Source: Staphylococcus phage PI-Sepi-HH2. From it: a stretch of DNA of 36,164 nt. Numbering within the stretch: the stretch's first letter is position 1; every line of letters starts with the position of its first letter. Below, in pieces: positions 2,648 to 30,815 of this stretch. A program made the translations under genes and the position numbers. The notes below the pieces were generated by a model. That model was not told where the DNA came from. It did not search any database and saw nothing but the letters and a program-made list of their open reading frames with translations. The stretch lies in sequence record MT880871.1; one strand, given 5' to 3'.

Positions 2648-5600
2648 TTAAACTCTCCATGAATCACCACGTAAAATATCACCAAAAGAGTACCAATATT
2701 TACCGTATTGTACTCTTACATCATAATTACTAAATTGAATTCCATATTTCTCATTCCAACTTAATATTCCTGTATAGCCATCAGTATAATTAACGATTTT
2801 AATTCTATCGTTTAATCCACTCGTCCATACAGTATTAAATCTATAACCATCTTGACCTAATTCATATTTGTATTCTCTTGTATTATTACCATAAAATGCT
2901 CTTACTCTACTTCCACCTTTACGATAATTTTCTAATGTCCAACCACCTGTGTTTACATCTCCACCATGACTATCAAATTTAATGTTATCAGCTATAATAT
3001 CTACTTCTGAAAGTCCATCATCTGTTGCTTTAGCGGTATGACACTTAATACCCGAAAAACTACCTGTGTTGGAATCAGCATCTAAGTTACCACTCGTACC
3101 TATTGCAATTGAAGGATATTGTGTACCTGTTGTCCTACTAAAAGTTAGAAAAGCACATGTCCCATTATTACTTTGATAAATGGCATTATTAGTCGTATGG
3201 AAAAGTATTCTTGAATGTCCATAATAATTTGTTTCTGCACCGTCAAAATAATCTAAACTATTAGCGTTTAAATTCCAACGCATACTACCACTTGTTGAAC
3301 GTAATACACCACTAGTAATTCTTGATGCATCAATATCAATTGCTTTAATTGCATTAATGAATGCACTTTTTGCAGTGAGTGTATTAACAAAAGATTCATT
3401 ATTGATTAACTTATTCACTAAACCATAATCAACATTAATAGCGTTTGAAGTAATACTATTAGCAGTTATTAATCTAGTACGTAAATTGGAAATATTACCA
3501 TAAACTGATTCTAAGGCTTTAGATTTCATCTTTTCAGTTAATGTATAGTTTGATGTTAAGTTATTAACCAGTAAATTATTTGTCATTAATTTATCGATTA
3601 ATGCACGATCAACATTAACCATGTTTGCATTAACACTATCTGCAGTTAAAATGTTACTTCTTAAGTAGTTAATATCCCCTCTAACTGCCTCAATTGCTTT
3701 TGATGAAATACTGTCTGCGACAACATTAATTTGTTTTTCTAAATCATCTACATTAGGTGACCAATCACTTGCTACAGTACCTTTTTCCAGTTGTGGTTTA
3801 GCAATATAAACTAATTTACTAGGCCATGTAGATGTAAAATAAATACGTAAATTAGTCTGATTTCCAGTATTGAATTTAAATATTAATCTTTGCTTATCTT
3901 TAACTTCTTTTATCGTTTCATTTTTTAAAAGAAATTGTCTAGGTTTTAATGAATAACCATTTTCATTAACGATTTCAATTGGAGTATAAGCTCCACCTAC
4001 TTCAAATTTAGGGATAACGTCATAACTTAATACATAGTCGGTATTAGGTTCTAATTTTACAAATTGGTTTGTTTCCCAAAAGAAATAACCTTTACTATCT
4101 TCATGTTCTAATGCATATAACTGATCATTAATAACTTTTCCAAATTCCACTATCTTATTATGATTAAATGGTGTAGTGTAGTTTGAAGTACCTTTTAATA
4201 AATTTACTGCACCAATCTTCATATTATCTACTTTCCTATTAATCTGATTGATTTGTTCAAGTGTAGCACTATTACTAAAGTTAGTTGCTTGTAGAACTTC
4301 ACTTTTAGCCCTTTCTATACTCTGATTAAATTCATTCGTAACATCATTAGCCTTTGTATCTATATATAACTTTGATTCATTTTGCTTACTATATAATTCA
4401 GTTAGCTTTGATTGAACAACTTCTTTATCACTAGTATATGATGCTTGATTTATATTAATTTGATTTTGAGCATTTTGAAGTGATGTTCTAAATTCATTTT
4501 GAACGTTATTAAATTCATCAGTGAATTTATTATCAAGTACATTAATGCTGGCTTGTGATGTCTGATTAGATTCATTTATCTTATCTCTAATTAATCCAGT
4601 TTCTTGTTCAAAATGATTGTTAAAGTTTTCTCTTTCAGTATTTAATCTAAAATCAAGATACTGTTCTAGTTGACTTTGATAATCCCTTATAACCTTTTCA
4701 GTATTAGAATTTGATATACTGCTATTCTGACTTGTATAACTGCTTGTTTTAGAGCCGAAAGTAACTTCTAGATACTTTTTATCCATAGGACTATACTTCG
4801 TCGCTATGACACGATTACGCACATCTATATCTTGTTCAATATGTCTTACGATTACAGTATCTCCTAAATGCACCTCCTCATTCTGCAAAACCTCTAAACC
4901 TATCTTTGTAGACACATTAGGTTTATCTATGTTTTGTACACTAAAATAGTTTTCTGCAAATGTTGTTAATTCTTCAACTGTCTTAATATCGTTATTTTCT
5001 ATAGACATTTCATATACTTCAGGATATTCATTGATTAATGGACTATCAACAGTAACAGATAAGGTTATTTCTTCATTTAGTAATTCTGTTTCTTCTTTAT
5101 GTTTCGCTTTCAATTTAGCAATTTCTGCTTTTTGTTTTTCAGCATGTTCTTTTGCTAGTTGTCTTTGTATATCTGTTTTTTGTTGTTGTGCTTTATACTT
5201 TTCTCTAATTTCATTTTCTATTTCTTCAGATGACTTAAATACTGTAACTTGCATTGTTTTATGACTTCTTTTTTTCTGTTCTTTATAACGTATCTTTTTT
5301 AATTCTTCACGTCTTATTGCTTCTTTAATTTCTTTCTCAATTCGTTTTTGACGCTTTTCATCTGCTAATCGTTTATTAAATTCAGCTTGTTTTGTTTTTA
5401 AAGCTTCAACTTCTTCTTTTTGTTTTTTCTTTAATTTCTCTTTATCATATTCAGGTTTGAATTTTGAGTTTGCTATAATACGTGTAATAACTTCATCGTA
5501 ATTATCTTCTTGACCAAATGAGGTTATGTTTTTATTAGTCGTATACAGAAACTGTGTATCTCTACCTATACGCCCTAATGAAATACCATTCAAGTAAAAG

Positions 5601-6103
5601 TCTAAATCTAAATCAGATTGATTGGCCATTTCAACTAACACATTTAATGCATATCTAGGTTTTAAGTCATCTTGTTTGTTAGAGTAGTAAGTCACACGTT
5701 TGTCAGTTGTATCACTCCAATACTCAATAGATAAATTTGGTGGTTCATTGAATTTTTGTGACCACATCTTTAAAGCGTCTACTGGTAATAAATCATTAAC
5801 AAAAAAAGGATTAACGTACTTCTTAGCTAAATCAAAAATTATTTGATACGCCGTAAATTGTACATAATCCTCTTCTTTATCTATATATCTAACTCTAAAT
5901 ATGTTATAACCAATCTCTCTAAAATGTTCAGTCGCTTTTAACATGCTATCTTTTTCTACTAACTTGTGTTGGTCACTTTTATTTACTGGTAATTTAAATA
6001 TTAATTTATAAATACCGTTTAAATCACGTTCGATAACATCATCATAGGCTTGTGATAAAGGTAAACCATTATAGTAAAAATTTGTTTCTTGTAAATAAAT
6101 CAA
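2648..6103 (-). CDS. Large tail tip / receptor-binding protein (Tal-like minor structural protein, 1151 aa).
   Basis: Lies after Dit. The TTG start at 6103 overlaps the Dit stop (TTGA coupling), with a GGTGGGGTG RBS. It has a roughly 100-aa K/E-rich coiled-coil segment and a Gly/Ser/Thr/Asn-rich C-terminal domain. Confidence 0.7.
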   Translation of the reverse strand: MIYLQETNFYYNGLPLSQAYDDVIERDLNGIYKLIFKLPVNKSDQHKLVEKDSMLKATEHFREIGYNIFRVRYIDKEEDYVQFTAYQIIFDLAKKYVNPFFVNDLLPVDALKMWSQKFNEPPNLSIEYWSDTTDKRVTYYSNKQDDLKPRYALNVLVEMANQSDLDLDFYLNGISLGRIGRDTQFLYTTNKNITSFGQEDNYDEVITRIIANSKFKPEYDKEKLKKKQKEEVEALKTKQAEFNKRLADEKRQKRIEKEIKEAIRREELKKIRYKEQKKRSHKTMQVTVFKSSEEIENEIREKYKAQQQKTDIQRQLAKEHAEKQKAEIAKLKAKHKEETELLNEEITLSVTVDSPLINEYPEVYEMSIENNDIKTVEELTTFAENYFSVQNIDKPNVSTKIGLEVLQNEEVHLGDTVIVRHIEQDIDVRNRVIATKYSPMDKKYLEVTFGSKTSSYTSQNSSISNSNTEKVIRDYQSQLEQYLDFRLNTERENFNNHFEQETGLIRDKINESNQTSQASINVLDNKFTDEFNNVQNEFRTSLQNAQNQININQASYTSDKEVVQSKLTELYSKQNESKLYIDTKANDVTNEFNQSIERAKSEVLQATNFSNSATLEQINQINRKVDNMKIGAVNLLKGTSNYTTPFNHNKIVEFGKVINDQLYALEHEDSKGYFFWETNQFVKLEPNTDYVLSYDVIPKFEVGGAYTPIEIVNENGYSLKPRQFLLKNETIKEVKDKQRLIFKFNTGNQTNLRIYFTSTWPSKLVYIAKPQLEKGTVASDWSPNVDDLEKQINVVADSISSKAIEAVRGDINYLRSNILTADSVNANMVNVDRALIDKLMTNNLLVNNLTSNYTLTEKMKSKALESVYGNISNLRTRLITANSITSNAINVDYGLVNKLINNESFVNTLTAKSAFINAIKAIDIDASRITSGVLRSTSGSMRWNLNANSLDYFDGAETNYYGHSRILFHTTNNAIYQSNNGTCAFLTFSRTTGTQYPSIAIGTSGNLDADSNTGSFSGIKCHTAKATDDGLSEVDIIADNIKFDSHGGDVNTGGWTLENYRKGGSRVRAFYGNNTREYKYELGQDGYRFNTVWTSGLNDRIKIVNYTDGYTGILSWNEKYGIQFSNYDVRVQYGKYWYSFGDILRGDSWRV

Positions 6104-16952: not shown

Positions 16953-18587
16953 CTAAAAATGAAGTTCGTCTAAAAAGAAATCAACATCATCTGTTAATAC
17001 TTCAGAAGCTTTATACAAAGCATGTATCATAGCTTGAAAACCGTCTGTTTTACGTCTATGTTCATCTTTTTTTAGATATTGAACATTACCGTCTTTCGTT
17101 ACATTTTTATAAACATTAAACGTGTACCAATTCATTAAAGGATTTTTACCCCAATACAAATTATTATTAGCGAATAGCGATTCAACTCGTGGTGCTAGTA
17201 ATCCATGAATTGCTGAAGGTTTTCTGATTGAATGTACATTAAAACCTTCTGCTTCTAATAGTGGTCTAATAATGTCTAACTTGTAAATATCAGCAACTAT
17301 AATTTCAATGTTGTATATTTCTCTCATCTCGACAAACCAGTTCACTACATGTCTTGGGTCAATAGTAGGTTCATCAACAATTGTTAATAGCCCTTTATCT
17401 GCCCACTCGTGAATTGGGGGTTTTAACTTTGCTTTTTCTAAATAATCTTTTCTAGCAAACGAATGTGTTTTCCAATAGTAATCATCGCCCTCCCGAAAAA
17501 GTAAACCAACAGCAGTAAAGTCACGAACAGAACCGAAATCTAAACCTCCTACACATGTTTTATGTAGGAGGTCAGGAATTTCTTTATTTGTTTTATATAC
17601 TTCTTCTGCAGTTGCTACTGATTCAGTTAAGTCTGTTTCAGGTAAATTCATTCGCTTAGCCATGAATTCAGCGCGATATTTTAAATTATTGTCTAGCTTT
17701 TGATGTTCTTTAATTACACGCTTATATAAATTTTTAGCGTATGGTGTCATCGGTTTAGAAAATTGAGGGTTTGCTTTTTCCCATGAATACGGATCGTCTG
17801 CTTCTTTAACATCATCTATCTTACATAAGAAACAAAACATATGATCGTCTAACACTTCGCCTTTTAAAATCTTATTTGCTCTATCTAACATGTCATCAAT
17901 CACACCGCCGCGAACATGTCCGTTTGAACCAATAAAAATTTCTCGTGGATTGTCTTTCTTACCTAATCCTGAACCAAAAACATTAATAATGTCATAACTT
18001 TCCATTCTATGAATTTCATCATAAATAACCATACCGTCTTTCAAACCATCTTTGCTACTAGGTGCTGAAGTATGATATTGCAACTTACTATTGGTCGCTT
18101 TCCCTGTAATTTCTTTTAAGTTTCTTCTGAAATAGTCATCTAAATTATTACGTTCTATGCAGTTATATATCTCCATAAATGATGTTTTAGCTTGTTTTTC
18201 AGTATTAGCTACAATAGAAATATCATATTCATCAACTGGGTTATAATCACTTAAGAAAAAATGAGACCAAACAGATACAAGTCCATTTTTACCTACCCCA
18301 CGACCACCCATAATAAAAAATTGGTCATAAAAAATATCGTTATCTTCTTTATAATAAAGAAATAAGAAAGCACTTAAGAATTTTTGAAAATCATCTAATT
18401 CAAAGTAAAATTCTTTAGCAAAATTAATAAGATTTTCAATTTGTTCATCATTAAAATATAAATCATTTCTTGGAAAAATAAAGTCTTCCAAAAAGTCTAC
18501 AAGTTGTTTACGCTCCTCATTAAAAAGTATCTTCCCTTGCTTGTATTGATTGATATAATCAGTAACGTACTTATTTACTACTAGCAA
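16953..18587 (-). CDS. terL: Terminase large subunit.
   Basis: 544 aa with a Walker A-like motif (MGGRGVGKNG) and a C-terminal nuclease region. Follows terS. TTG start; there is no in-frame ATG before the ATPase motif. Confidence 0.9.
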   Translation of the reverse strand: MLVVNKYVTDYINQYKQGKILFNEERKQLVDFLEDFIFPRNDLYFNDEQIENLINFAKEFYFELDDFQKFLSAFLFLYYKEDNDIFYDQFFIMGGRGVGKNGLVSVWSHFFLSDYNPVDEYDISIVANTEKQAKTSFMEIYNCIERNNLDDYFRRNLKEITGKATNSKLQYHTSAPSSKDGLKDGMVIYDEIHRMESYDIINVFGSGLGKKDNPREIFIGSNGHVRGGVIDDMLDRANKILKGEVLDDHMFCFLCKIDDVKEADDPYSWEKANPQFSKPMTPYAKNLYKRVIKEHQKLDNNLKYRAEFMAKRMNLPETDLTESVATAEEVYKTNKEIPDLLHKTCVGGLDFGSVRDFTAVGLLFREGDDYYWKTHSFARKDYLEKAKLKPPIHEWADKGLLTIVDEPTIDPRHVVNWFVEMREIYNIEIIVADIYKLDIIRPLLEAEGFNVHSIRKPSAIHGLLAPRVESLFANNNLYWGKNPLMNWYTFNVYKNVTKDGNVQYLKKDEHRRKTDGFQAMIHALYKASEVLTDDVDFFLDELHF

Positions 18588-18909
18588 CTCTATCCCTCAA
18601 AGAAAACGTTTTAGGTTTGTCGTTACTAGATTCTTTTTTAACTTTTGAGCGTTTGAAAATTGCATCTTCCAACATTAACAGTTCTTTATTTATCTTAATA
18701 ACATCAGACATACTGGGGTGTGTTTTTATGTAATGCTGAGATGAATTATTTACATTAATTGTTAAACCTTCTTTATTAATTGCAGTAATCAGTTGCCTGT
18801 ATTTCTTAACAAGTGCAATGTATCTCTCAATCTTCTCAATTACCAAAAAATCGGTATCATCAACTCTAGCTAACATACTCTCACGAATTTTTTTAGTAGA
18901 AACCGGCAT
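18571..18909 (-). CDS. terS: Terminase small subunit (P27-like).
   Basis: 112 aa. Strong GGAGGTG RBS. Lies immediately upstream of and overlapping terL, and follows the HNH gene. Confidence 0.8.
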   Translation of the reverse strand: MPVSTKKIRESMLARVDDTDFLVIEKIERYIALVKKYRQLITAINKEGLTINVNNSSQHYIKTHPSMSDVIKINKELLMLEDAIFKRSKVKKESSNDKPKTFSLRDRVASSK

Positions 18910-18944: not shown

Positions 18945-19030
18945 CGTTCGACGAAAACGACCCCGCACCCGCTCAAGAGAAAAAATAAAATCTTAAATCA
19001 CTCACTCCGGGGGGTATTGGGACAGTCTTA
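18945..19030. other. Candidate cos (cohesive end) region: a GC-rich island in an AT-rich intergenic stretch between the HNH and terS genes.
   Basis: cgacgaaaacgaccccgcacccgctcaagag...ccggggggtattgggacagtc is the only GC-rich stretch in the window. The HNH-cos-terS arrangement is known for Staphylococcus cos phages. Confidence 0.3.
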
Positions 19031-19231
19031 ATTTTAATTATAAAAATAAAATTAATTTAAATTATATGTATAAATAAAACTACTAAAGTGTATGTGTCTG
19101 TCACTTAACTAAAAACGAAAAAAATGAAAATTAAAAATTAAATTTTAAAATTCATTTCAACAATCAATAATACAAGTTAACTATATGATCTATATATCAA
19201 AGACAGTCACACACACATCTATGTATATCAC

Positions 19232-19522
19232 TTACCATTGTTCATCATTCCATTGCTTACGACTTCCACCATACACACGACCATGAACCTTATTATGACA
19301 ATCAATACATAAAGTAATTAAGTTATCAATGTTCAAAGCTAAATCAGGTCTAAGGTCAATAGGTTGTATATGATGTACGTTCTGCCCTTTAACTACTTTA
19401 CCTTCTGCTTTACAATGTTGACATTCACGATTGTCACGCAAATAAGCTTTCATTCTTAATTGATTCCAGTCAGTACTGTGATAGAACTTATTACGTTTAT
19501 CCTTAGTATCTAACTCCAACAT
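19232..19522 (-). CDS. HNH endonuclease (packaging-associated in cos phages).
   Basis: 96 aa with the C..C....HH...C..CH zinc/HNH motif (CQHCKAEGK...VHHIQPI...CIDCHNKVHG). ATG with GAGGTGG RBS. Sits upstream of terS. Confidence 0.9.
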   Translation of the reverse strand: MLELDTKDKRNKFYHSTDWNQLRMKAYLRDNRECQHCKAEGKVVKGQNVHHIQPIDLRPDLALNIDNLITLCIDCHNKVHGRVYGGSRKQWNDEQW

Positions 19523-20482: not shown

Positions 20483-20510
20483 GAACGCCCGATTGTTCTA
20501 TCGGACGTTC
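20483..20510. terminator. Hairpin downstream of the late-activator gene; a possible terminator.
   Basis: 11-bp stem gaacgcccgat/atcggacgttc with one mismatch and a 6-nt loop. The flanking U-tract is weak. Confidence 0.35.
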
Positions 20511-20624
20511 TTCGTGTAGGATAAAATAACTTTTCAAAGGAGGAACATACCATGAGAATCACAACAGCTTGAGATAGTCGTCGTTAAAACTATCTCAATA
20601 ATGTATCATTCGTATAGCAAAAAT

Positions 20625-21116
20625 TTATAAAAACAAATTACACTGCATCTCACTATTAATTTTATTAACTGCTCTCTTTAAATAACTTTGTGCAGCACTT
20701 TTACTAATGTTTAATAATCCTGCAACATCATTTAAACTTAACTGTTCACATTTGTGCATTAAGAAAACATCTAGCTCTTGCTTAGTTAATTTCATTAAAG
20801 CGTAGTAAGATTGATGATTAACATCGTGAATAAAATCACTGTATTCATCTTCACTCTGTTTTTGGTACATTGACTGATTAATCATCTTTTCAATCGTTTC
20901 AGGATTAACTAAATAACATTGACGTTTATCTATCGCATTATAATTATTAGGCTCGTGTCCCTCTCTCAACCATTCAATCACATAATTAATATCACTTAAT
21001 ATCTGTCTATTTAATGCAAGTTCGTTAATGTCTACAACATCACACTGCATTAAACTTTTTATCCGTTTTAAAACTTTATTTTTACTTAATAGATACGACA
21101 TTAACAAATCTAACAT
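20625..21116 (-). CDS. Late-gene transcriptional activator (RinA/ArpU/sigma-like, C-terminal HTH).
   Basis: Position upstream of the packaging genes. The C-terminal region LSLNDVAGLLNISKSAAQSYLKRAVNKI is sigma region-4-like. The likely start is ATG 21116 (AGAGGTG RBS); the track start at 21125 is GTG. Confidence 0.6.
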   Translation of the reverse strand: MLDLLMSYLLSKNKVLKRIKSLMQCDVVDINELALNRQILSDINYVIEWLREGHEPNNYNAIDKRQCYLVNPETIEKMINQSMYQKQSEDEYSDFIHDVNHQSYYALMKLTKQELDVFLMHKCEQLSLNDVAGLLNISKSAAQSYLKRAVNKINSEMQCNLFL

Positions 21117-21169
21117 TAAAAGCACCTCTTTATTTTATACAGTGTAATAATACACTAAAATCTGGTATT

Positions 21170-21455
21170 TGTCTTATGTCATAAGACAATTTTCTGAGTA
21201 AAAAGACACCCAGCAAATCCTTTATTATCAAGGCTTTGAGTCAAATTTCAAGGCCATTTGTCTGTCTTATGTATTAATATTTTTCTTTTATATATATTAT
21301 TATATATAGTAGTCTTTTTTATATAAGAAGTTAAAAACACATAAGACACATAAGACACTTTATGAAAATATAGATTTAACTGTTGATGAATAAAGCTTTG
21401 AAGGTGTCTTATGTGTGTCTTATTATATTAAATTTTGTCTTATGTACATAAGACA
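21170..21455. repeat. Iteron array: about 9 copies of TGTCTTATG / CATAAGACA in both orientations, including two palindromes, flanking an AT-rich core. Candidate phage origin of replication.
   Basis: Sites at 21170-21188 (9+1+9 palindrome), 21263-21271, 21349-21366 (tandem ACATAAGAC x2), 21405-21413, 21416-21424 (degenerate) and 21436-21455 (perfect 10+10 palindrome). The AT-rich core spans 21280-21335. Confidence 0.6.
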
Positions 21456-23314
21456 TATATATGTTCTCTTATACCATTCACTCTAATTTGTTTTGATTCT
21501 ACTTTTTTTAAACGACATACCTCTTTAGTAAAAACTGCTCTACTCACAGACTTGTATCCATATTCAACACAGTATTCACTATATTGTGTATAGATATCTT
21601 TAGTCGATTCATTCTCTATTTTAGGTTCTTCATTATTAAGAAATGCTAAAACAGGATTGTTTCTTTCTTTGTATGCTTCTATTTCTTCTGTTACTGATTT
21701 AGGTTTGGTGAAGCGATTATTTTTTAACAATCGTTTTAATCCTCTTATAGCCATGACTAAACAATACTGTAATGAATCAGGACTTAGTAACTTATCAATA
21801 ATGAATGGGTCGTAATCATCGTCTTTATTCGTGAATTTAGCTTTAAAAGGTACAATCATTAAACGTCTGTTAAGTCCGTCTGTTTTATCATCAATTCTTG
21901 GTACTTCATTCGCACTAAAAATAAGCTTTGCATAGTTACGTAAATCAAAAGGGTCTTTTCCCTTACGCTCAACAACTAATGTTTCACCTGTAGCTAGATT
22001 TTTCAGTTCTGCACTATCTTTAATAAAACCTTTTCCAATATCATCGCCTAGATTGACTAACTTGCCGAATAATTCTGCTGTTTTAAAACGGCCGTTCAAA
22101 TCTTTAAGTGCGACGCTTGATGTATTGGTATCGCCGACTAATGAACGTAAAATCTTTAAGAATGATGATTTACCATTACTTCCACCACCCGTTAAAATGA
22201 AAAACTTACCATATTCATTACGTCTAAATAATGTGTAACCTAAAATCTCTTCAAATAAATTTCTTAATTCATGGTCATTTACTGCTAGCTTATTAAATGT
22301 TTTATCAGTGATTTCATGATAGCTATCTTCCATATATGGAACGGGTATTTTATTTTTTACAATTATTTCAGGTGTGAATGGTTGCATTGAATTAGTATTT
22401 AAATCATATATTCCATTTGCTAGTGTTAAATAATTCACTGGTGATAATTCTTTTTGTTCCGTCTGTAGCTGTAAATAAGATAGCGTTTCTTGTCGTTGTA
22501 TCTTTTTTAAACCAGGAATATGTTTAATCATTAATCTTTCTATATCGTCTTGTTTATCAGAATAATAACCGTCAATATAAATATGCAAAATATCTGCTAT
22601 TCTAATAATGTGATACTCATTAATAAGGTATTTAGCGAATAAATCATGTTGAAATTTACCATTAATAAAAAAAGATTCTTTTAAAAAAGCGTCATCACGT
22701 AAAACAATATCCAATTCTTTATCAGATATAGGTTCAAATAGCACATGTTTATTAATTAACCTTATTGTATTTCGTATTTCCTCCTTACTCATCGCTATTT
22801 GTTGTAATTTAAGAATGTAATTAAATAATGTTTGGTTTCGTCCGTCACCCTCTGCAAGTTCAGTGAAACCTGGATCTGTTTTAAATGACGCTTCTAACCA
22901 TTTTGGCAACTCATCAATTTCAGTTTCATCAACACGTTTAAGCCATTTTCTAAACTCTCCATTAATTTTTAAAGGGTCGCAACTATTTTTAATTCCTAAC
23001 TTATAATCGCACATAATACCAATAGCTGAAAAATTCTTAGTTTTATTATTGGTCATGTTATAACCTTTGAAATAAAAATGCATACCATTGTCAGTTTCTA
23101 GAATATTACATTTAATTTGTTCACCTTCAATGATGTTAAGTAATAACTGTGCTTCATTCATATCATCAACATCAACCATAATGTAATCTTCATCTAACAC
23201 ACCAACAAAACTTTTTAATGCTCTAGCTTGTTTATAGTCTAATAACGCATCTTTATTATCTTTAAAAGTTGTAATAGTACGCTTTCCACTCGACTTTAAA
23301 TAACCTTTATACAT
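21440..23314 (-). CDS. DNA primase / replication initiator: N-terminal Prim-Pol domain with a C-terminal D5/VirE-like P-loop NTPase.
   Basis: MVDVDD acidic primase motif; Walker A LTGGGSNGKSSF. 624 aa from ATG 23314 (GGAGG RBS 7 nt upstream); the track start 23341 is an upstream in-frame ATG. Confidence 0.75.
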   Translation of the reverse strand: MYKGYLKSSGKRTITTFKDNKDALLDYKQARALKSFVGVLDEDYIMVDVDDMNEAQLLLNIIEGEQIKCNILETDNGMHFYFKGYNMTNNKTKNFSAIGIMCDYKLGIKNSCDPLKINGEFRKWLKRVDETEIDELPKWLEASFKTDPGFTELAEGDGRNQTLFNYILKLQQIAMSKEEIRNTIRLINKHVLFEPISDKELDIVLRDDAFLKESFFINGKFQHDLFAKYLINEYHIIRIADILHIYIDGYYSDKQDDIERLMIKHIPGLKKIQRQETLSYLQLQTEQKELSPVNYLTLANGIYDLNTNSMQPFTPEIIVKNKIPVPYMEDSYHEITDKTFNKLAVNDHELRNLFEEILGYTLFRRNEYGKFFILTGGGSNGKSSFLKILRSLVGDTNTSSVALKDLNGRFKTAELFGKLVNLGDDIGKGFIKDSAELKNLATGETLVVERKGKDPFDLRNYAKLIFSANEVPRIDDKTDGLNRRLMIVPFKAKFTNKDDDYDPFIIDKLLSPDSLQYCLVMAIRGLKRLLKNNRFTKPKSVTEEIEAYKERNNPVLAFLNNEEPKIENESTKDIYTQYSEYCVEYGYKSVSRAVFTKEVCRLKKVESKQIRVNGIREHIYVLCT

Positions 23315-23343
23315 GAGTAAACCTCCTTTCATGAATGTCATTT

Positions 23344-24808: not shown

Positions 24809-25540
24809 CTAATTTTCTTTGACATTATTGTAATACTCATCTGACCATAAAAATGCTCTATAACCTAAGTTATGATAATTCTTTCTAGCGTTATTACAAG
24901 ATTCATTAATTGTTTGTCTGTTATATAAAGTAATTCTTTCAGCTTCTCTTGTACTCTTAAATTCTCTAATTAATTTACCTTCCTTTGAAACATGAACTAT
25001 TCCTTTACTTTTTGATTTATACCCTGTCAATTTACCTAACTCTGTCATTGATACTTTCTTTAAATTAGAAGGTCTAAAATCTTCTTTAATTCCATTTTTA
25101 GAATAAATTCGTTCATGATTTTCTAAAATACCAATAAACGTTTGGTAGACTAATCGTTTGACTACATATTCGTTACTTTGATATTTAATAGTCATGTGAT
25201 TTTTACGTAAGTAAGGGAACGTGTATGTATAACCAGTTAACGTTTTTCTTCTAAATCGACCCTCATTACTAATGAATAAACCACTTAAATTACTTTCTTT
25301 CCAAATTTCATTTTTAAATTTCAATTTAGCAATTCGCTTTCTTTTTTCTGAAACTGTCAAAGGTTCTTTTGAGATATAGCAATTTAGTTTTGGTAAGTAT
25401 GTTTCCTTTTTAATTGCATTAGCAATATACGATGAAATACTTTTCTTGTTGCCTATTAACTCTTTGAAATAATCTTTTGTAACTATTGTTGTTTTATTGT
25501 AGATAGGCTCCCATATATATAATAATTTTTTCTCTTTCAT
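24809..25540 (-). CDS. Free-standing HNH-family homing endonuclease (HNH_3 with NUMOD4- and NUMOD1/IENR-like motifs).
   Basis: NUMOD4-like EIWKESNLSGLFISNEGRFRR; HNH_3-like ENHERIYSKNGIKEDFRPSNL; C-terminal IENR-like GKLIREFKSTREAERI. Weak RBS, which is typical of homing endonuclease genes. Confidence 0.65.
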   Translation of the reverse strand: MKEKKLLYIWEPIYNKTTIVTKDYFKELIGNKKSISSYIANAIKKETYLPKLNCYISKEPLTVSEKRKRIAKLKFKNEIWKESNLSGLFISNEGRFRRKTLTGYTYTFPYLRKNHMTIKYQSNEYVVKRLVYQTFIGILENHERIYSKNGIKEDFRPSNLKKVSMTELGKLTGYKSKSKGIVHVSKEGKLIREFKSTREAERITLYNRQTINESCNNARKNYHNLGYRAFLWSDEYYNNVKEN

Positions 25541-28686: not shown

Positions 28687-30519
28687 TTATTCAGTTTTTT
28701 TACGTCTACTTCTACGAGTACGTTTTGGTTTTTCATCTAATGTTTCTTCTTTTTCTTCAGCTTTAGCTTCTTCTACTGCTTCTTTAGTTGATGATTTTCT
28801 TTTTCTTGTTTTTCTTTTAGGCTCTTCAATCACTTCTTCTTTATCGGTAATTGTTTCGCCTGGTGGTACTTCTTCAGTACCTTTAGTTTCTTCTTTAACA
28901 GTTTGTTTTACTGATTTATCTTCTTTAATTTCTTCTTTTATTGGTTTAATTTTAGCAGTGATTTTTGCATGTGATGCTTTTTGAGCATTTATTAATTCTT
29001 GAATAAATTCATCTTTACTTAATTCACATGTATCATTTAAGAAGTTAAATCGACCACCACCGAACACATTGCGTTGTTTAGATAGTTGAAGTAGTCTTAC
29101 ACCGTCACTATTCATAAATGCACGAATTGTTAAGTCTACTGTGCCTGTTGTAAAGTTAGCAGTTTTATCATCAATATTAGGTATAAAGTTTGTACGTACT
29201 GCCCCACCTTTTAGAGTTGTTTCTGATTTAACTTCTTTACTGATATAAATAATTTGGTAACCTAAATTTTTAAGTCGTTTGATAGCATTGTTAAATTCTG
29301 TTTTAACCATTGCCCAACCTTTACCATATCCACCGTCAGACTCGTGTTCCCACCCGTTCTTATCGAATACATAAATACGACAGTGTTCTCTTAAATCTTC
29401 AAATAAATCAATAGCTATTGCTTTAAAACCACTATCTTTATCTGTTTCAAGTTCACTTACTACATTTAAAAATTGTTCCCATGCAAATGTACGTTTGGTA
29501 ATGCGTCCCTCTTTTACTACTTCATCTTTGATATTGATAACTGGCGATGTAGTATTATCTGTGTTTCCGTCAGTGTTTAAAAATAGCAAATCGTCAAATT
29601 TATCTACAAATGTTGACTTTCCTACATATGAATCTCCGTATATCCAAAAGTCAGGTCGTTCATCAATTTTCTTTTCTCGTCTTATATTTTTAGGTAATGT
29701 CATTATTAATTCTCCTTTATCATCTCTTAGTTGTTCTAAATACTCTGGTGCAAATCTAGGATTACATGCAAAACATTCATCGTTAGGGTTTTTAATCCAG
29801 TTAAAAGTTTTTTCTTGAATAGCTTCTTTAATTTCTTTACATTCATTTAAGAAGTAGATAATTTCCATTTCTTGAGGCTCTATTTTTAAACATGTAGTTT
29901 TAAGCTTTCTCATAGTTACATTTAATCTTTTTCTAAATTGTATTAAGTCTTCATCTTTCTTTTGTCTAATGCTTGTTTTAGGTAAGAATAAATAGCCCAT
30001 TGCTATAACGTTATATCCCTCTTGTTCAAGATAGTACTTATATATTTGTAATTGAGGTGATTCTTTATATTTTTCAATCGCATTACTGTATTTAAAGTCA
30101 ATGATTGCAATATCATTCGTACCTTTTCTTTTTACGATTAAATCGACAAAACCAATAAATTCAGGTTTATTTATTTCATACTCATGTATAAATACATAAC
30201 CACCAGTGAAGCTAAAGCTGTTATTAAAATCACTTAACCATTCTTTAGCTTTTTCTAAATTATGTTCTAACTTAATGGCTTCATTAATCACATCATTAGT
30301 CACTAGTGGAAAAGCGTTATAAAACTCTTTCAGCATGGCTTTTTTACCTTTTTCAATTCCAGTGTGTAGTGCATGACCAACAATAAGTGGACTATTAGCT
30401 TCATAGTTTGGTAATTCTGTAAGCCTATCTATATACCGTAATTTGAAGTGATATGGACAACGTTTAAACAAATCAACTCTTGAATAACTGAATTGCATTA
30501 AAACCACGTCCTTTTCCAT
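28687..30519 (-). CDS. Fusion protein: an N-terminal PD-(D/E)xK (Cas4/RecB-like) nuclease joined to a C-terminal AAA_24 (Sak4-like) P-loop ATPase, with a K/E/R-rich C-terminal tail.
   Basis: N-terminal GFVDLIV...IIDFKYS (D...DxK) with flanking Cys residues. Walker A WIYGDSYVGKST and LNTDGNTD. The last 90 aa are about 60% K/E/R. Confidence 0.6.
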   Translation of the reverse strand: MEKDVVLMQFSYSRVDLFKRCPYHFKLRYIDRLTELPNYEANSPLIVGHALHTGIEKGKKAMLKEFYNAFPLVTNDVINEAIKLEHNLEKAKEWLSDFNNSFSFTGGYVFIHEYEINKPEFIGFVDLIVKRKGTNDIAIIDFKYSNAIEKYKESPQLQIYKYYLEQEGYNVIAMGYLFLPKTSIRQKKDEDLIQFRKRLNVTMRKLKTTCLKIEPQEMEIIYFLNECKEIKEAIQEKTFNWIKNPNDECFACNPRFAPEYLEQLRDDKGELIMTLPKNIRREKKIDERPDFWIYGDSYVGKSTFVDKFDDLLFLNTDGNTDNTTSPVINIKDEVVKEGRITKRTFAWEQFLNVVSELETDKDSGFKAIAIDLFEDLREHCRIYVFDKNGWEHESDGGYGKGWAMVKTEFNNAIKRLKNLGYQIIYISKEVKSETTLKGGAVRTNFIPNIDDKTANFTTGTVDLTIRAFMNSDGVRLLQLSKQRNVFGGGRFNFLNDTCELSKDEFIQELINAQKASHAKITAKIKPIKEEIKEDKSVKQTVKEETKGTEEVPPGETITDKEEVIEEPKRKTRKRKSSTKEAVEEAKAEEKEETLDEKPKRTRRSRRKKTE

Positions 30520-30815
30520 TCTTCAAAATCTTTCGGACGTAAAACATAAGCTTCTCCACCTGCTAACTTGATTTGTTTCATTCTCTCTTTTTGAATACCT
30601 CTCACAACACCAGTATTTGTTTTAAGTTCTATGCCATGAAATACACCATTAATACAAGCCAGTACATCAGGAATACCATTTACTGTAAACTTATTACCTG
30701 CCCAATATTTAACTGCAAACGCATTAGGATTATGCTTTAAAAATTGCATGACATCATTTTGAAACGCTGCTTCATTCTTATATGTTTTAGTCAATGGAAC
30801 CACCTTCATAATCAA
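30498..30815 (-). CDS. VRR-NUC domain nuclease.
   Basis: 105 aa with GIPDVLACINGVFHGIELKT (a PD...ExK core typical of VRR-NUC). Confidence 0.7.
   Translation of the reverse strand: MIMKVVPLTKTYKNEAAFQNDVMQFLKHNPNAFAVKYWAGNKFTVNGIPDVLACINGVFHGIELKTNTGVVRGIQKERMKQIKLAGGEAYVLRPKDFEEWKRTWF

Follow-up and report, generated by a model that had tools for sequence, protein, structure and literature searches.

The Rep proteins of staphylococcal pathogenicity islands (SaPIs) are self-loading helicases of superfamily 3 (SF3) and recognise their iterons through a C-terminal winged helix (PMC9371898). SaPI origins contain 6-12 iterons of 5-6 nt each directly downstream of the rep open reading frame (ORF) (PMC9371898), and their AT-rich centre has two or more iterons on each side, oppositely oriented (PMC9371898, summarising Ubeda et al. 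2007, 2012). For the SaPI5 initiator PriRep5 a cryo-electron microscopy structure is available (7OLA). A SaPI5-like origin was also predicted in silico for the lytic Enterococcus phage Abitsa (Efquatrovirus), with no co-variation analysis reported, and the idea of a SaPI-like phage origin is therefore already published (PMC13517437). Here, an array of inverted iterons at positions 21170-21455 of Staphylococcus phage PI-Sepi-HH2 (MT880871.1) is described. The whole stretch of DNA analysed, 36,164 bp and hereafter called the window, is a complete temperate siphovirus-type Staphylococcus prophage, and the array lies directly after its primase-helicase gene. That 21170-21455 is the lytic replication origin of this prophage is given a probability of roughly 85%.

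Megablast of the locus against 50,697 phage records gave no match, and 25 kb of the window searched against the same records gave a sole short match of 86% in an endolysin region of PhiSepi-HH1. Among these records there is no annotated close relative from which an origin annotation could be borrowed.

The iteron array, its AT-rich core and the primase-helicase

Eight exact matches to TGTCTTATG/CATAAGACA were found on both strands, all of them inside 21170-21455 (286 bp), where chance predicts 0.55 per window and none of 100 shuffles reached eight exact copies. No exact copy was found in the remainder of the 36,164 bp; outside the array there are just scattered matches to TGTCTTATG with one mismatch, and the total with at most one mismatch is not clearly above chance. 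Together the array holds nine copies with 0-1 mismatch and one degenerate copy, the last ending 270 bp past the primase stop, and seven of the nine good copies are extended to the 10-mer TGTCTTATGT. The gene, the iterons and the core are arranged as follows.

21440-23341, minus strand: gene of the primase-helicase, a Pri-Rep-like initiator of 633 aa (PHROG 864 'DNA primase', E = 4e-224)
21443-21709, minus strand: coding region of its C-terminal domain, residues 545-633, with the wing QIRVNGIREHIYV (AlphaFold2 (AF2) model)
21436-21455, no strand: iteron pair 1, a perfect 20-bp palindrome TGTCTTATGT/ACATAAGACA (inverted-repeat pair I17)
21405-21424, plus strand: two direct iterons 11 bp apart, TGTCTTATG at 21405-21413 and TGTCTTATT, the ninth copy with one mismatch, at 21416-21424 (repeat family D7)
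21339-21357, minus strand: two abutting tandem iterons with a 9-bp period beside the AT core, ACATAAGAC twice at 21339-21356 (repeat family D2)
21272-21338, no strand: AT-rich core and proposed DNA-unwinding element, 10% GC over 67 bp (duplex stability and composition profile)
21259-21271, plus strand: iteron on the opposite side of the core, TGTC-TGTCTTATG, including part of an additional TGTC (exact match)
21200-21208, minus strand: degenerate iteron AAAAAGACA with two mismatches (read from the sequence)
21170-21188, no strand: iteron pair at the distal end, a 9+1+9 palindrome TGTCTTATG-T-CATAAGACA (inverted-repeat pair I13)

Read along the minus strand, the end of the primase ORF is followed by a palindromic pair, two direct copies, two abutting copies and the AT core; after the core come an inverted copy, the degenerate copy, the second palindromic pair and, 54 bp on, the start of the next gene. 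The palindrome at 21436-21455 covers the primase stop (complement of 21440-21442) and provides the last 4-5 codons of the gene. On the primase strand the tandem pair reads TGTCTTATG TGTCTTATG and is directed into the AT core, and the iteron at 21259-21271 is inverted relative to it across the core. The primase side of the core holds six iterons and the opposite side three to four, the copies abutting the core being mutually inverted, and the array is roughly symmetric, with its outer palindromes centred about 140 and 126 bp from the core. About nine copies in both orientations within about 290 bp, with both outer palindromes, had been described in the original prediction, and these were recovered (eight exact copies, one with one mismatch and one with two). 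The tandem pair that it reported at 21349-21366 also exists, with coordinates shifted by 10 to 21339-21356.

The original prediction had further placed an extremely AT-rich segment between the repeats, and this is the core at 21272-21338. By nearest-neighbour free energy, no duplex in the window is less stable than the segment starting at 21266-21268 at lengths of 40, 60 and 80 bp, the core ranking first among approximately 36,000 positions compared, and the 40-bp stretch 21268-21308 has 5% GC.

The primase-helicase matches DUF5906, D5_N and Pox_D5 in Pfam, identifying an SF3/D5-type helicase core, and scores 227 bits (cut-off 109) against NCBIfam TIGR01613, the C-terminal region of P4-family primases. 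It is 85-96% identical to proteins of Staphylococcus sp., S. hominis and S. aureus. In a phmmer search of the PDB its residues 253-607 aligned to residues 384-741 of the SaPI5 primase-helicase PriRep5 (7OLA/7OM0, E = 2.4e-36). For the N-terminal ~250 residues no significant similarity to PriRep5 was detected, and Pfam gave nothing significant for residues 1-250. The fold matches of a full-length AF2 model, to the NrS-1 and pRN1 primase-polymerases at the N-terminus and to SaPI5 and D5, are weak hints because the full-length model is poor, with a predicted local distance difference test score (pLDDT) of 55; by these an N-terminal region resembling archaeo-eukaryotic primases (AEP) is weakly supported. 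The C-terminal 89 residues (545-633) were modelled at pLDDT 84 as four helices and a beta-hairpin, and all top Foldseek matches in the PDB were winged-helix DNA binders (probability 0.97-1.0, E near 0.05), among them RFX-DBD/DNA and archaeal Orc1/Cdc6 on origin DNA. Residues 545-633 are accordingly modelled, and predicted, as a winged helix, and the co-variation described below makes this domain the proposed reader of the iterons.

We infer that binding, melting, helicase loading and initiation all take place at 21170-21455. The primase-helicase, a homologue of the self-loading PriRep5, would recognise the 9-10-bp iterons TGTCTTATG(T) via its C-terminal winged helix. Because the iterons are inverted across the 67-bp core and a palindromic pair stands at each outer end, the initiator would assemble on both flanks, and the core, as the least stable duplex of the window, would melt. 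Helicase rings would load, probably one per flank, for bidirectional synthesis, and the primase part of the same protein would prime the phage family-A polymerase, which is encoded about 3 kb upstream.

Related loci and co-variation of iterons with the primase C-terminus

A survey with one genome per species yielded 80 related loci, 79 of them usable, and the 730 bp after each primase gene were compared with 398 control stretches of equal size. An 8-mer with at least four copies was present in 31 of the 79 loci against 15 of the 398 controls, and an 8-mer with at least five copies in 18 against three. The iteron layout after the primase gene was seen in about 30 related loci across Bacillota, the repeat sequences differing, with an AT core of 0-12% GC inside the array. 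The closest phage records are those of Bacillus phage BMBtp15 (primase 58% identical) and Paenibacillus phage Wanderer (49%), and in both of them the gap after the primase gene has repeats in both orientations either side of an AT-rich core; neither record has a replication-origin feature in the stretch examined. The iteron is GGTTACAG in BMBtp15, GTAACAGA in Wanderer, TGTCTTAGAT in Facklamia and TGTCAAAGAT in Companilactobacillus. The consensus repeats share a scaffold GT-NNNN-(A/G)GAT with a variable centre, as in TGTCTTATGT of the window and in TGTCCTAGAT, TGTCTTAGAT, TGTCAAAGAT, TGTGACAGAT, GTTCAAGAT, GGTAACAGAT and GGTTACAGAT. By this survey, self-loading replicons of the SaPI type are widespread among the complete temperate phages of Bacillota, BMBtp15 and Wanderer being examples. 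The proposal of a SaPI- or phage-type iteron origin just downstream of a pri-rep gene, already part of the original prediction, gains support from the homology to PriRep5, the predicted winged helix, the layout and the roughly 30 related loci. Among these loci the layout is kept, and the iteron sequence changes in concert and tracks the C-terminus of the primase, which also supports the proposal.

Extra GTGACC/GGTCAC inverted repeats with T-rich spacers, e.g. GTGACCGTTTTTTGGTCA, were noted in L018, L019, L006, L007 and L001. In Bacillus-group relatives they sit between the primase stop and the iteron array; they are absent from the window, as is a small extra ORF that follows the primase gene in L006 and L007. 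In the locus L013 (NZ_JBICVX010000028.1, a 37,029-bp contig filed as 'Streptomyces sp. NPDC048604'), the primase is 99% identical to that of the window, and nine iteron copies follow its gene at matching offsets. The GC content of the window is about 29% and its relatives are otherwise from staphylococci; L013 may be a contamination of the 'Streptomyces sp. NPDC048604' assembly.

Co-variation was followed most closely in four staphylococcal loci, L005, L009, L011 and L012 (group B), with primases 85-86% identical to that of the window (the L011 product being truncated). Their intergenic DNA can be aligned to the window, and at nine of the ten iteron positions of the window TCTAGGACA or TGTCCTAGA replaces CATAAGACA or TGTCTTATG. 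The site aligned with the tandem pair reads TGTCCTAGA TGTCCTAGA, that aligned with the iteron at 21259-21271 reads TCTGGGACA, and the L005 site aligned with the degenerate copy at 21200-21208 is an exact group-B iteron, TGTCCTAGA. The primases of the window and group B are about 90% identical over most of the protein and 53-60% identical in the last ~45 residues. This C-terminal divergence was significant in Fisher's test (p = 6e-6 for L005, 6e-4 for L009), also with the five iteron-encoded residues removed (p = 1e-3 for L005, 0.03 for L009). Among 30 loci, a partial Mantel test of iteron distance against C-terminal-domain distance, given the rest of the protein, gave r = 0.24 (p = 0.01); the reverse test gave r = -0.07 (p = 0.74).

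A pair of Bacillaceae loci, L018 and L019, has origin DNA about 90% identical, and at all eight iterons one and the same A/T transversion separates the two, GTTAC vs GTAAC. Over the aligned last ~30 codons their primases differ just at the wing tip, GK-ST-RL vs GK-NK-RI. An identical change at many dispersed sites in otherwise conserved DNA is what a specificity change of one trans-acting reader predicts. Among Bacillus-type loci, all seven DGKNKR wings with an identified GTNACAG-type iteron go with GTAACAG, and both DGKSKR wings go with GTTACAG; L026, also with a DGKNKR wing, has the related iteron GTAACGG, and in L017 the iteron was not identified, the top 8-mer there being a different repeat. 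Examples of paired wing and iteron are GK-NK-R with GTAACAG, GK-SK-R with GTTACAG, GK-ST-R with GGTTACGC, NGIREH with TGTCTTATG and DGERNY with TGTCCTAGA. From these comparisons the tip of the beta-hairpin wing appears to determine most of the iteron specificity, and the view that initiator and origin form a cognate specificity pair is supported at the level of sequence.

The record L094 (KV835168.1, Staphylococcus sp. HMSC077H01) contains at 4790-6060 a primase with a group-B-like C-terminus and group-B iterons, and then a duplicated primase 3' fragment with a window-type C-terminus and window-type iterons, each type of C-terminus preceding its own type of iteron. The candidate natural chimera P0001, a primase 96% identical to that of the window but with the group-B-like C-terminus, was rejected since L094 is N-gapped and mixes two phage types; P0001 may be an assembly chimera.

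A further conserved motif accompanies the iterons.

21226-21236, plus strand: second conserved motif TATCAAGGCTT, family consensus (G)TATCAAGGGTT (recurs in the origin regions of relatives)

Loose-pattern matches to (G)TATCAAGGGTT numbered 34 in origin regions vs 12 and three in control regions of equal size. The motif is found once or twice per origin region in relatives from Staphylococcus, Bacillus, Paenibacillus and Listeria despite their differing iterons, for example at 6026-6036 and 6179-6189 of L001, at about 5910 and 6068 of L002 and in the origin regions of L018 and L019; TATCAAGGCTT has one exact copy in the window. Since the motif is constant while the iterons change, a conserved factor of the host or the replisome could read it, one not described for SaPI-type origins. 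The wider proposal, in which two or three residues of the wing tip read the iteron in the major groove as in RFX, in place of the recognition helix, and such a factor reads (G)TATCAAGGGTT, is tentative, and the odds are judged to be against it. The sequence TATCAAGGNTT was tried as a late promoter or operator and discarded: it has a single exact copy in the window and its one-mismatch matches are below chance, so it is not a general promoter. A shorter TTCAAGG element often directly precedes an iteron pair.

Alternative readings and neighbouring elements

Two features next to or within the array bear on a regulatory reading of it.

20625-21125, minus strand: gene of a sigma-like late regulator, directly downstream of the array, context and not part of the origin (PHROG 1190 'RNA polymerase sigma factor', E = 3e-47)
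21224-21251, minus strand: sigma-70-like promoter TTGAAA-16 nt-GATAAT toward the sigma-like gene (consensus match alone, 10/12)

The repeats might be operators or promoter elements at the early-to-late boundary, bound by the sigma-like activator or another regulator, which would control the regulator's own gene or terminate primase transcription. The array does lie directly upstream of the sigma-like gene, the 10/12 promoter within it faces that gene, and palindromic sites are typical of dimeric regulators. Yet no exact copy of the motif occurs elsewhere in the window, including the regions upstream of the packaging and structural genes where late promoters would be candidates, and what sigma-type proteins read is a -35 and a -10 element, unlike the ten inverted 9-mers that are distributed here over 286 bp on either side of an AT core. 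The DNA-reading region-4 helix of the regulator differs between L005 and L009, which share the same iteron type, and it is the primase C-terminus, unlike this helix, that tracks the iterons; the protein encoded next to the array is moreover a homologue of a proven iteron-binding initiator. Operators for a late activator, which the original prediction had kept as its alternative, are on these grounds distinctly unlikely. Its description of the neighbour as RinA/ArpU-like also did not stand: the matches are to Sigma70_r4_2 and Sigma70_r4 in Pfam, to PHROG 1190 and, as best NCBIfam match and below cut-off, to PRK06930 'positive control sigma-like factor', which make the protein sigma-like, and no RinA or ArpU model was found among its 24 NCBIfam hits or in Pfam.

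It could also be argued that the primase-helicase binds the repeats mainly for autoregulation, copy control or handcuffing, with the true origin elsewhere, after the model of the separate ori and crr sites of P4 or of the control repeats of iteron plasmids. The overlap of the iterons with the 3' end of the initiator's own gene and the P4-family signature of the protein fit such a role, and P4 alpha is known to bind repeats at two distant loci. The window, however, contains a single cluster and no second one in 36 kb, its least stable duplex sits centrally between inverted iterons, which is the signature of an unwinding element, and the pairing of iterons with an AT core is kept in relatives; a main role of this kind is regarded as distinctly unlikely. 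A packaging (cos/pac) or centromere-like partition site has the least to commend it and is considered very improbable. Some pac, cos and par sites do likewise have repeats around an AT-rich segment, and the terminase genes are just ~2.2 kb downstream. Against this, the linear Wanderer genome has an equivalent array about 1.6-1.9 kb inside its right end, whereas its physical ends lie after the HNH gene and just before the terminase genes, and the changes in the iterons track the primase C-terminus and not the terminase. No ParA/ParB/ParR-like gene was recognised among the ORFs of the replication and packaging modules that were scanned.

Several observations weigh against the interpretation of 21170-21455 as a replication origin of this type. 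Among more distant homologues, an array directly after the gene is missing from Listeria phage P40 (25% identity) and from many high-GC loci of Clostridia; in P40 genes abut the primase without a gap, so the layout does not reach all D5-type phage primases. The iterons of the window are 9-10 bp long as compared to 5-6 nt in SaPIs. The E-values of the fold search with the C-terminal domain are weak (~0.05), as is the full-length model. The promoter-like site within the array leaves room for a regulatory role, and because it faces the regulator gene some coupling of transcription and origin function is possible; its -10 element overlaps the TATCAAGGCTT motif, the orientation of which is not conserved in Bacillus relatives. 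Finally, the region coding for the C-terminus abuts the iterons and linkage could explain part of the co-variation. As judged from the alignments, the concerted change at 8-9 dispersed sites argues against pure linkage, and replacement of the whole module could also account for it.

In the 323-bp gap between the primase and the regulator gene no ORF of at least 40 aa lies wholly inside, only ORFs of at most 39 aa being listed there; the sole ORF of at least 40 aa touching the gap (21435-21593, plus strand, 52 aa) is antisense within the primase gene. An Rfam scan of 20500-22000 at E up to 1 gave no match, so an RNA element is not indicated. A terminator was looked for and rejected, the one terminator-like hairpin (21232-21255) being on the plus strand, antisense to the genes, and not kept in group-B relatives. 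The sigma-like ORF begins mechanically at a GTG at 21125, and the ATG at 21116 is the likely true start because a ribosome-binding site, AGAGGTG, lies 6 nt ahead of it and the relatives are called at 163 aa. Just upstream of this ribosome-binding site, at 21141-21156, is a palindrome AGTGTA-N4-TACACT that is kept in the group-B loci L005 and L012 and has one change (AGTATA) in L009 and L011. It is not an iteron, since it is kept in group-B relatives whose iterons differ, and it may be an operator for the sigma-like gene.

The remaining genes are those of a temperate phage. The right end of the window encodes an integrase and a repressor, and the replication module a SNF2-type helicase, an exonuclease/Sak4-like protein, a single-stranded DNA-binding protein (SSB), the family-A polymerase and MazG. 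The primase-helicase, the sigma-like regulator, an HNH endonuclease, the small and large terminase subunits, portal, protease, major head protein, tail genes, tape measure, holin and endolysin are further encoded. Two ORFs in this region may be mobile insertions: an HNH_3-like ORF of 243 aa (24809-25540, minus strand) between the polymerase and MazG genes, for which no match was found in the fetched parts of L005, L009 and L012, and an endonuclease-like ORF of 105 aa (30498-30815, minus strand) in the replication module. The second least stable duplex of the window (19027-19088, 2-7% GC) is flanked by the genes of the HNH endonuclease (19232-19522) and the small terminase (18571-18909). In HNH-dependent packaging systems the cos site is usually located between these two genes.

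Comparison with described replicons

The alpha protein of P4 combines primase, SF3 helicase and a C-terminal origin-binding domain in one polypeptide, as does the product of the window, which passes TIGR01613. P4 alpha binds short repeats and needs two separated loci, ori and crr, several kb apart; in contrast, all copies in the window are in one 286-bp cluster without a second cluster of the ori/crr kind, and the N-terminal primase region of the window protein looks AEP-like by weak, model-based hints. In lambda, iterons and an adjacent AT-rich unwinding region form ori-lambda, and the specificities of initiator O and iterons co-vary among relatives, in the same way as iterons, AT-rich region and co-variation are combined in the family of the window. 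In lambda the initiator gene contains the iterons, and O brings in the host helicase DnaB by way of P, whereas the iterons of the window follow the initiator gene, whose product is itself the helicase. Abitsa, whose origin resembles that of the window by its published description, differs in being a lytic phage of another genus.

No new principle is involved, and the added value is the breadth of the family and the co-variation of wing and iteron. A precise pair of origin and initiator is proposed for an uncharacterised group of prophages of coagulase-negative staphylococci and S. aureus, and about 20 distinct iteron variants with their paired C-terminal domains make up a data set on how this initiator family reads DNA. 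Such pairs could guide the design of orthogonal origin/initiator pairs, and could help to foresee which prophages and satellites in one host would be incompatible in replication or would cross-activate each other.

The closest likeness is to SaPI1, SaPIbov1 and SaPI5. An SF3 self-loading helicase serves as initiator, fused to a primase in SaPI5 and in the window protein, and the structural points of a SaPI origin, 6-12 iterons placed immediately 3' of the gene, a central AT-rich region and inverted iterons flanking it, are each present in the window. A C-terminal winged helix as reader is common to both, in the window as a predicted fold with recognition of the iterons inferred, and the iteron sequence differs between specificity groups in both. 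In the window, the first iteron pair is inside the last codons of the gene, and the N-terminal ~250 residues of the initiator are without significant similarity to PriRep5. The second conserved motif (G)TATCAAGGGTT accompanies the iterons of the window family, and to our knowledge TATCAAGGGTT has no equivalent in SaPIs. SaPIs are satellites, whereas here the carrier is a whole temperate phage of 36 kb that has polymerase, SSB, recombinase, terminase, capsid, tail and lysis genes of its own. Because this carrier encodes the full gene set of a phage, the proposed origin is built like that of a SaPI but does not belong to one.

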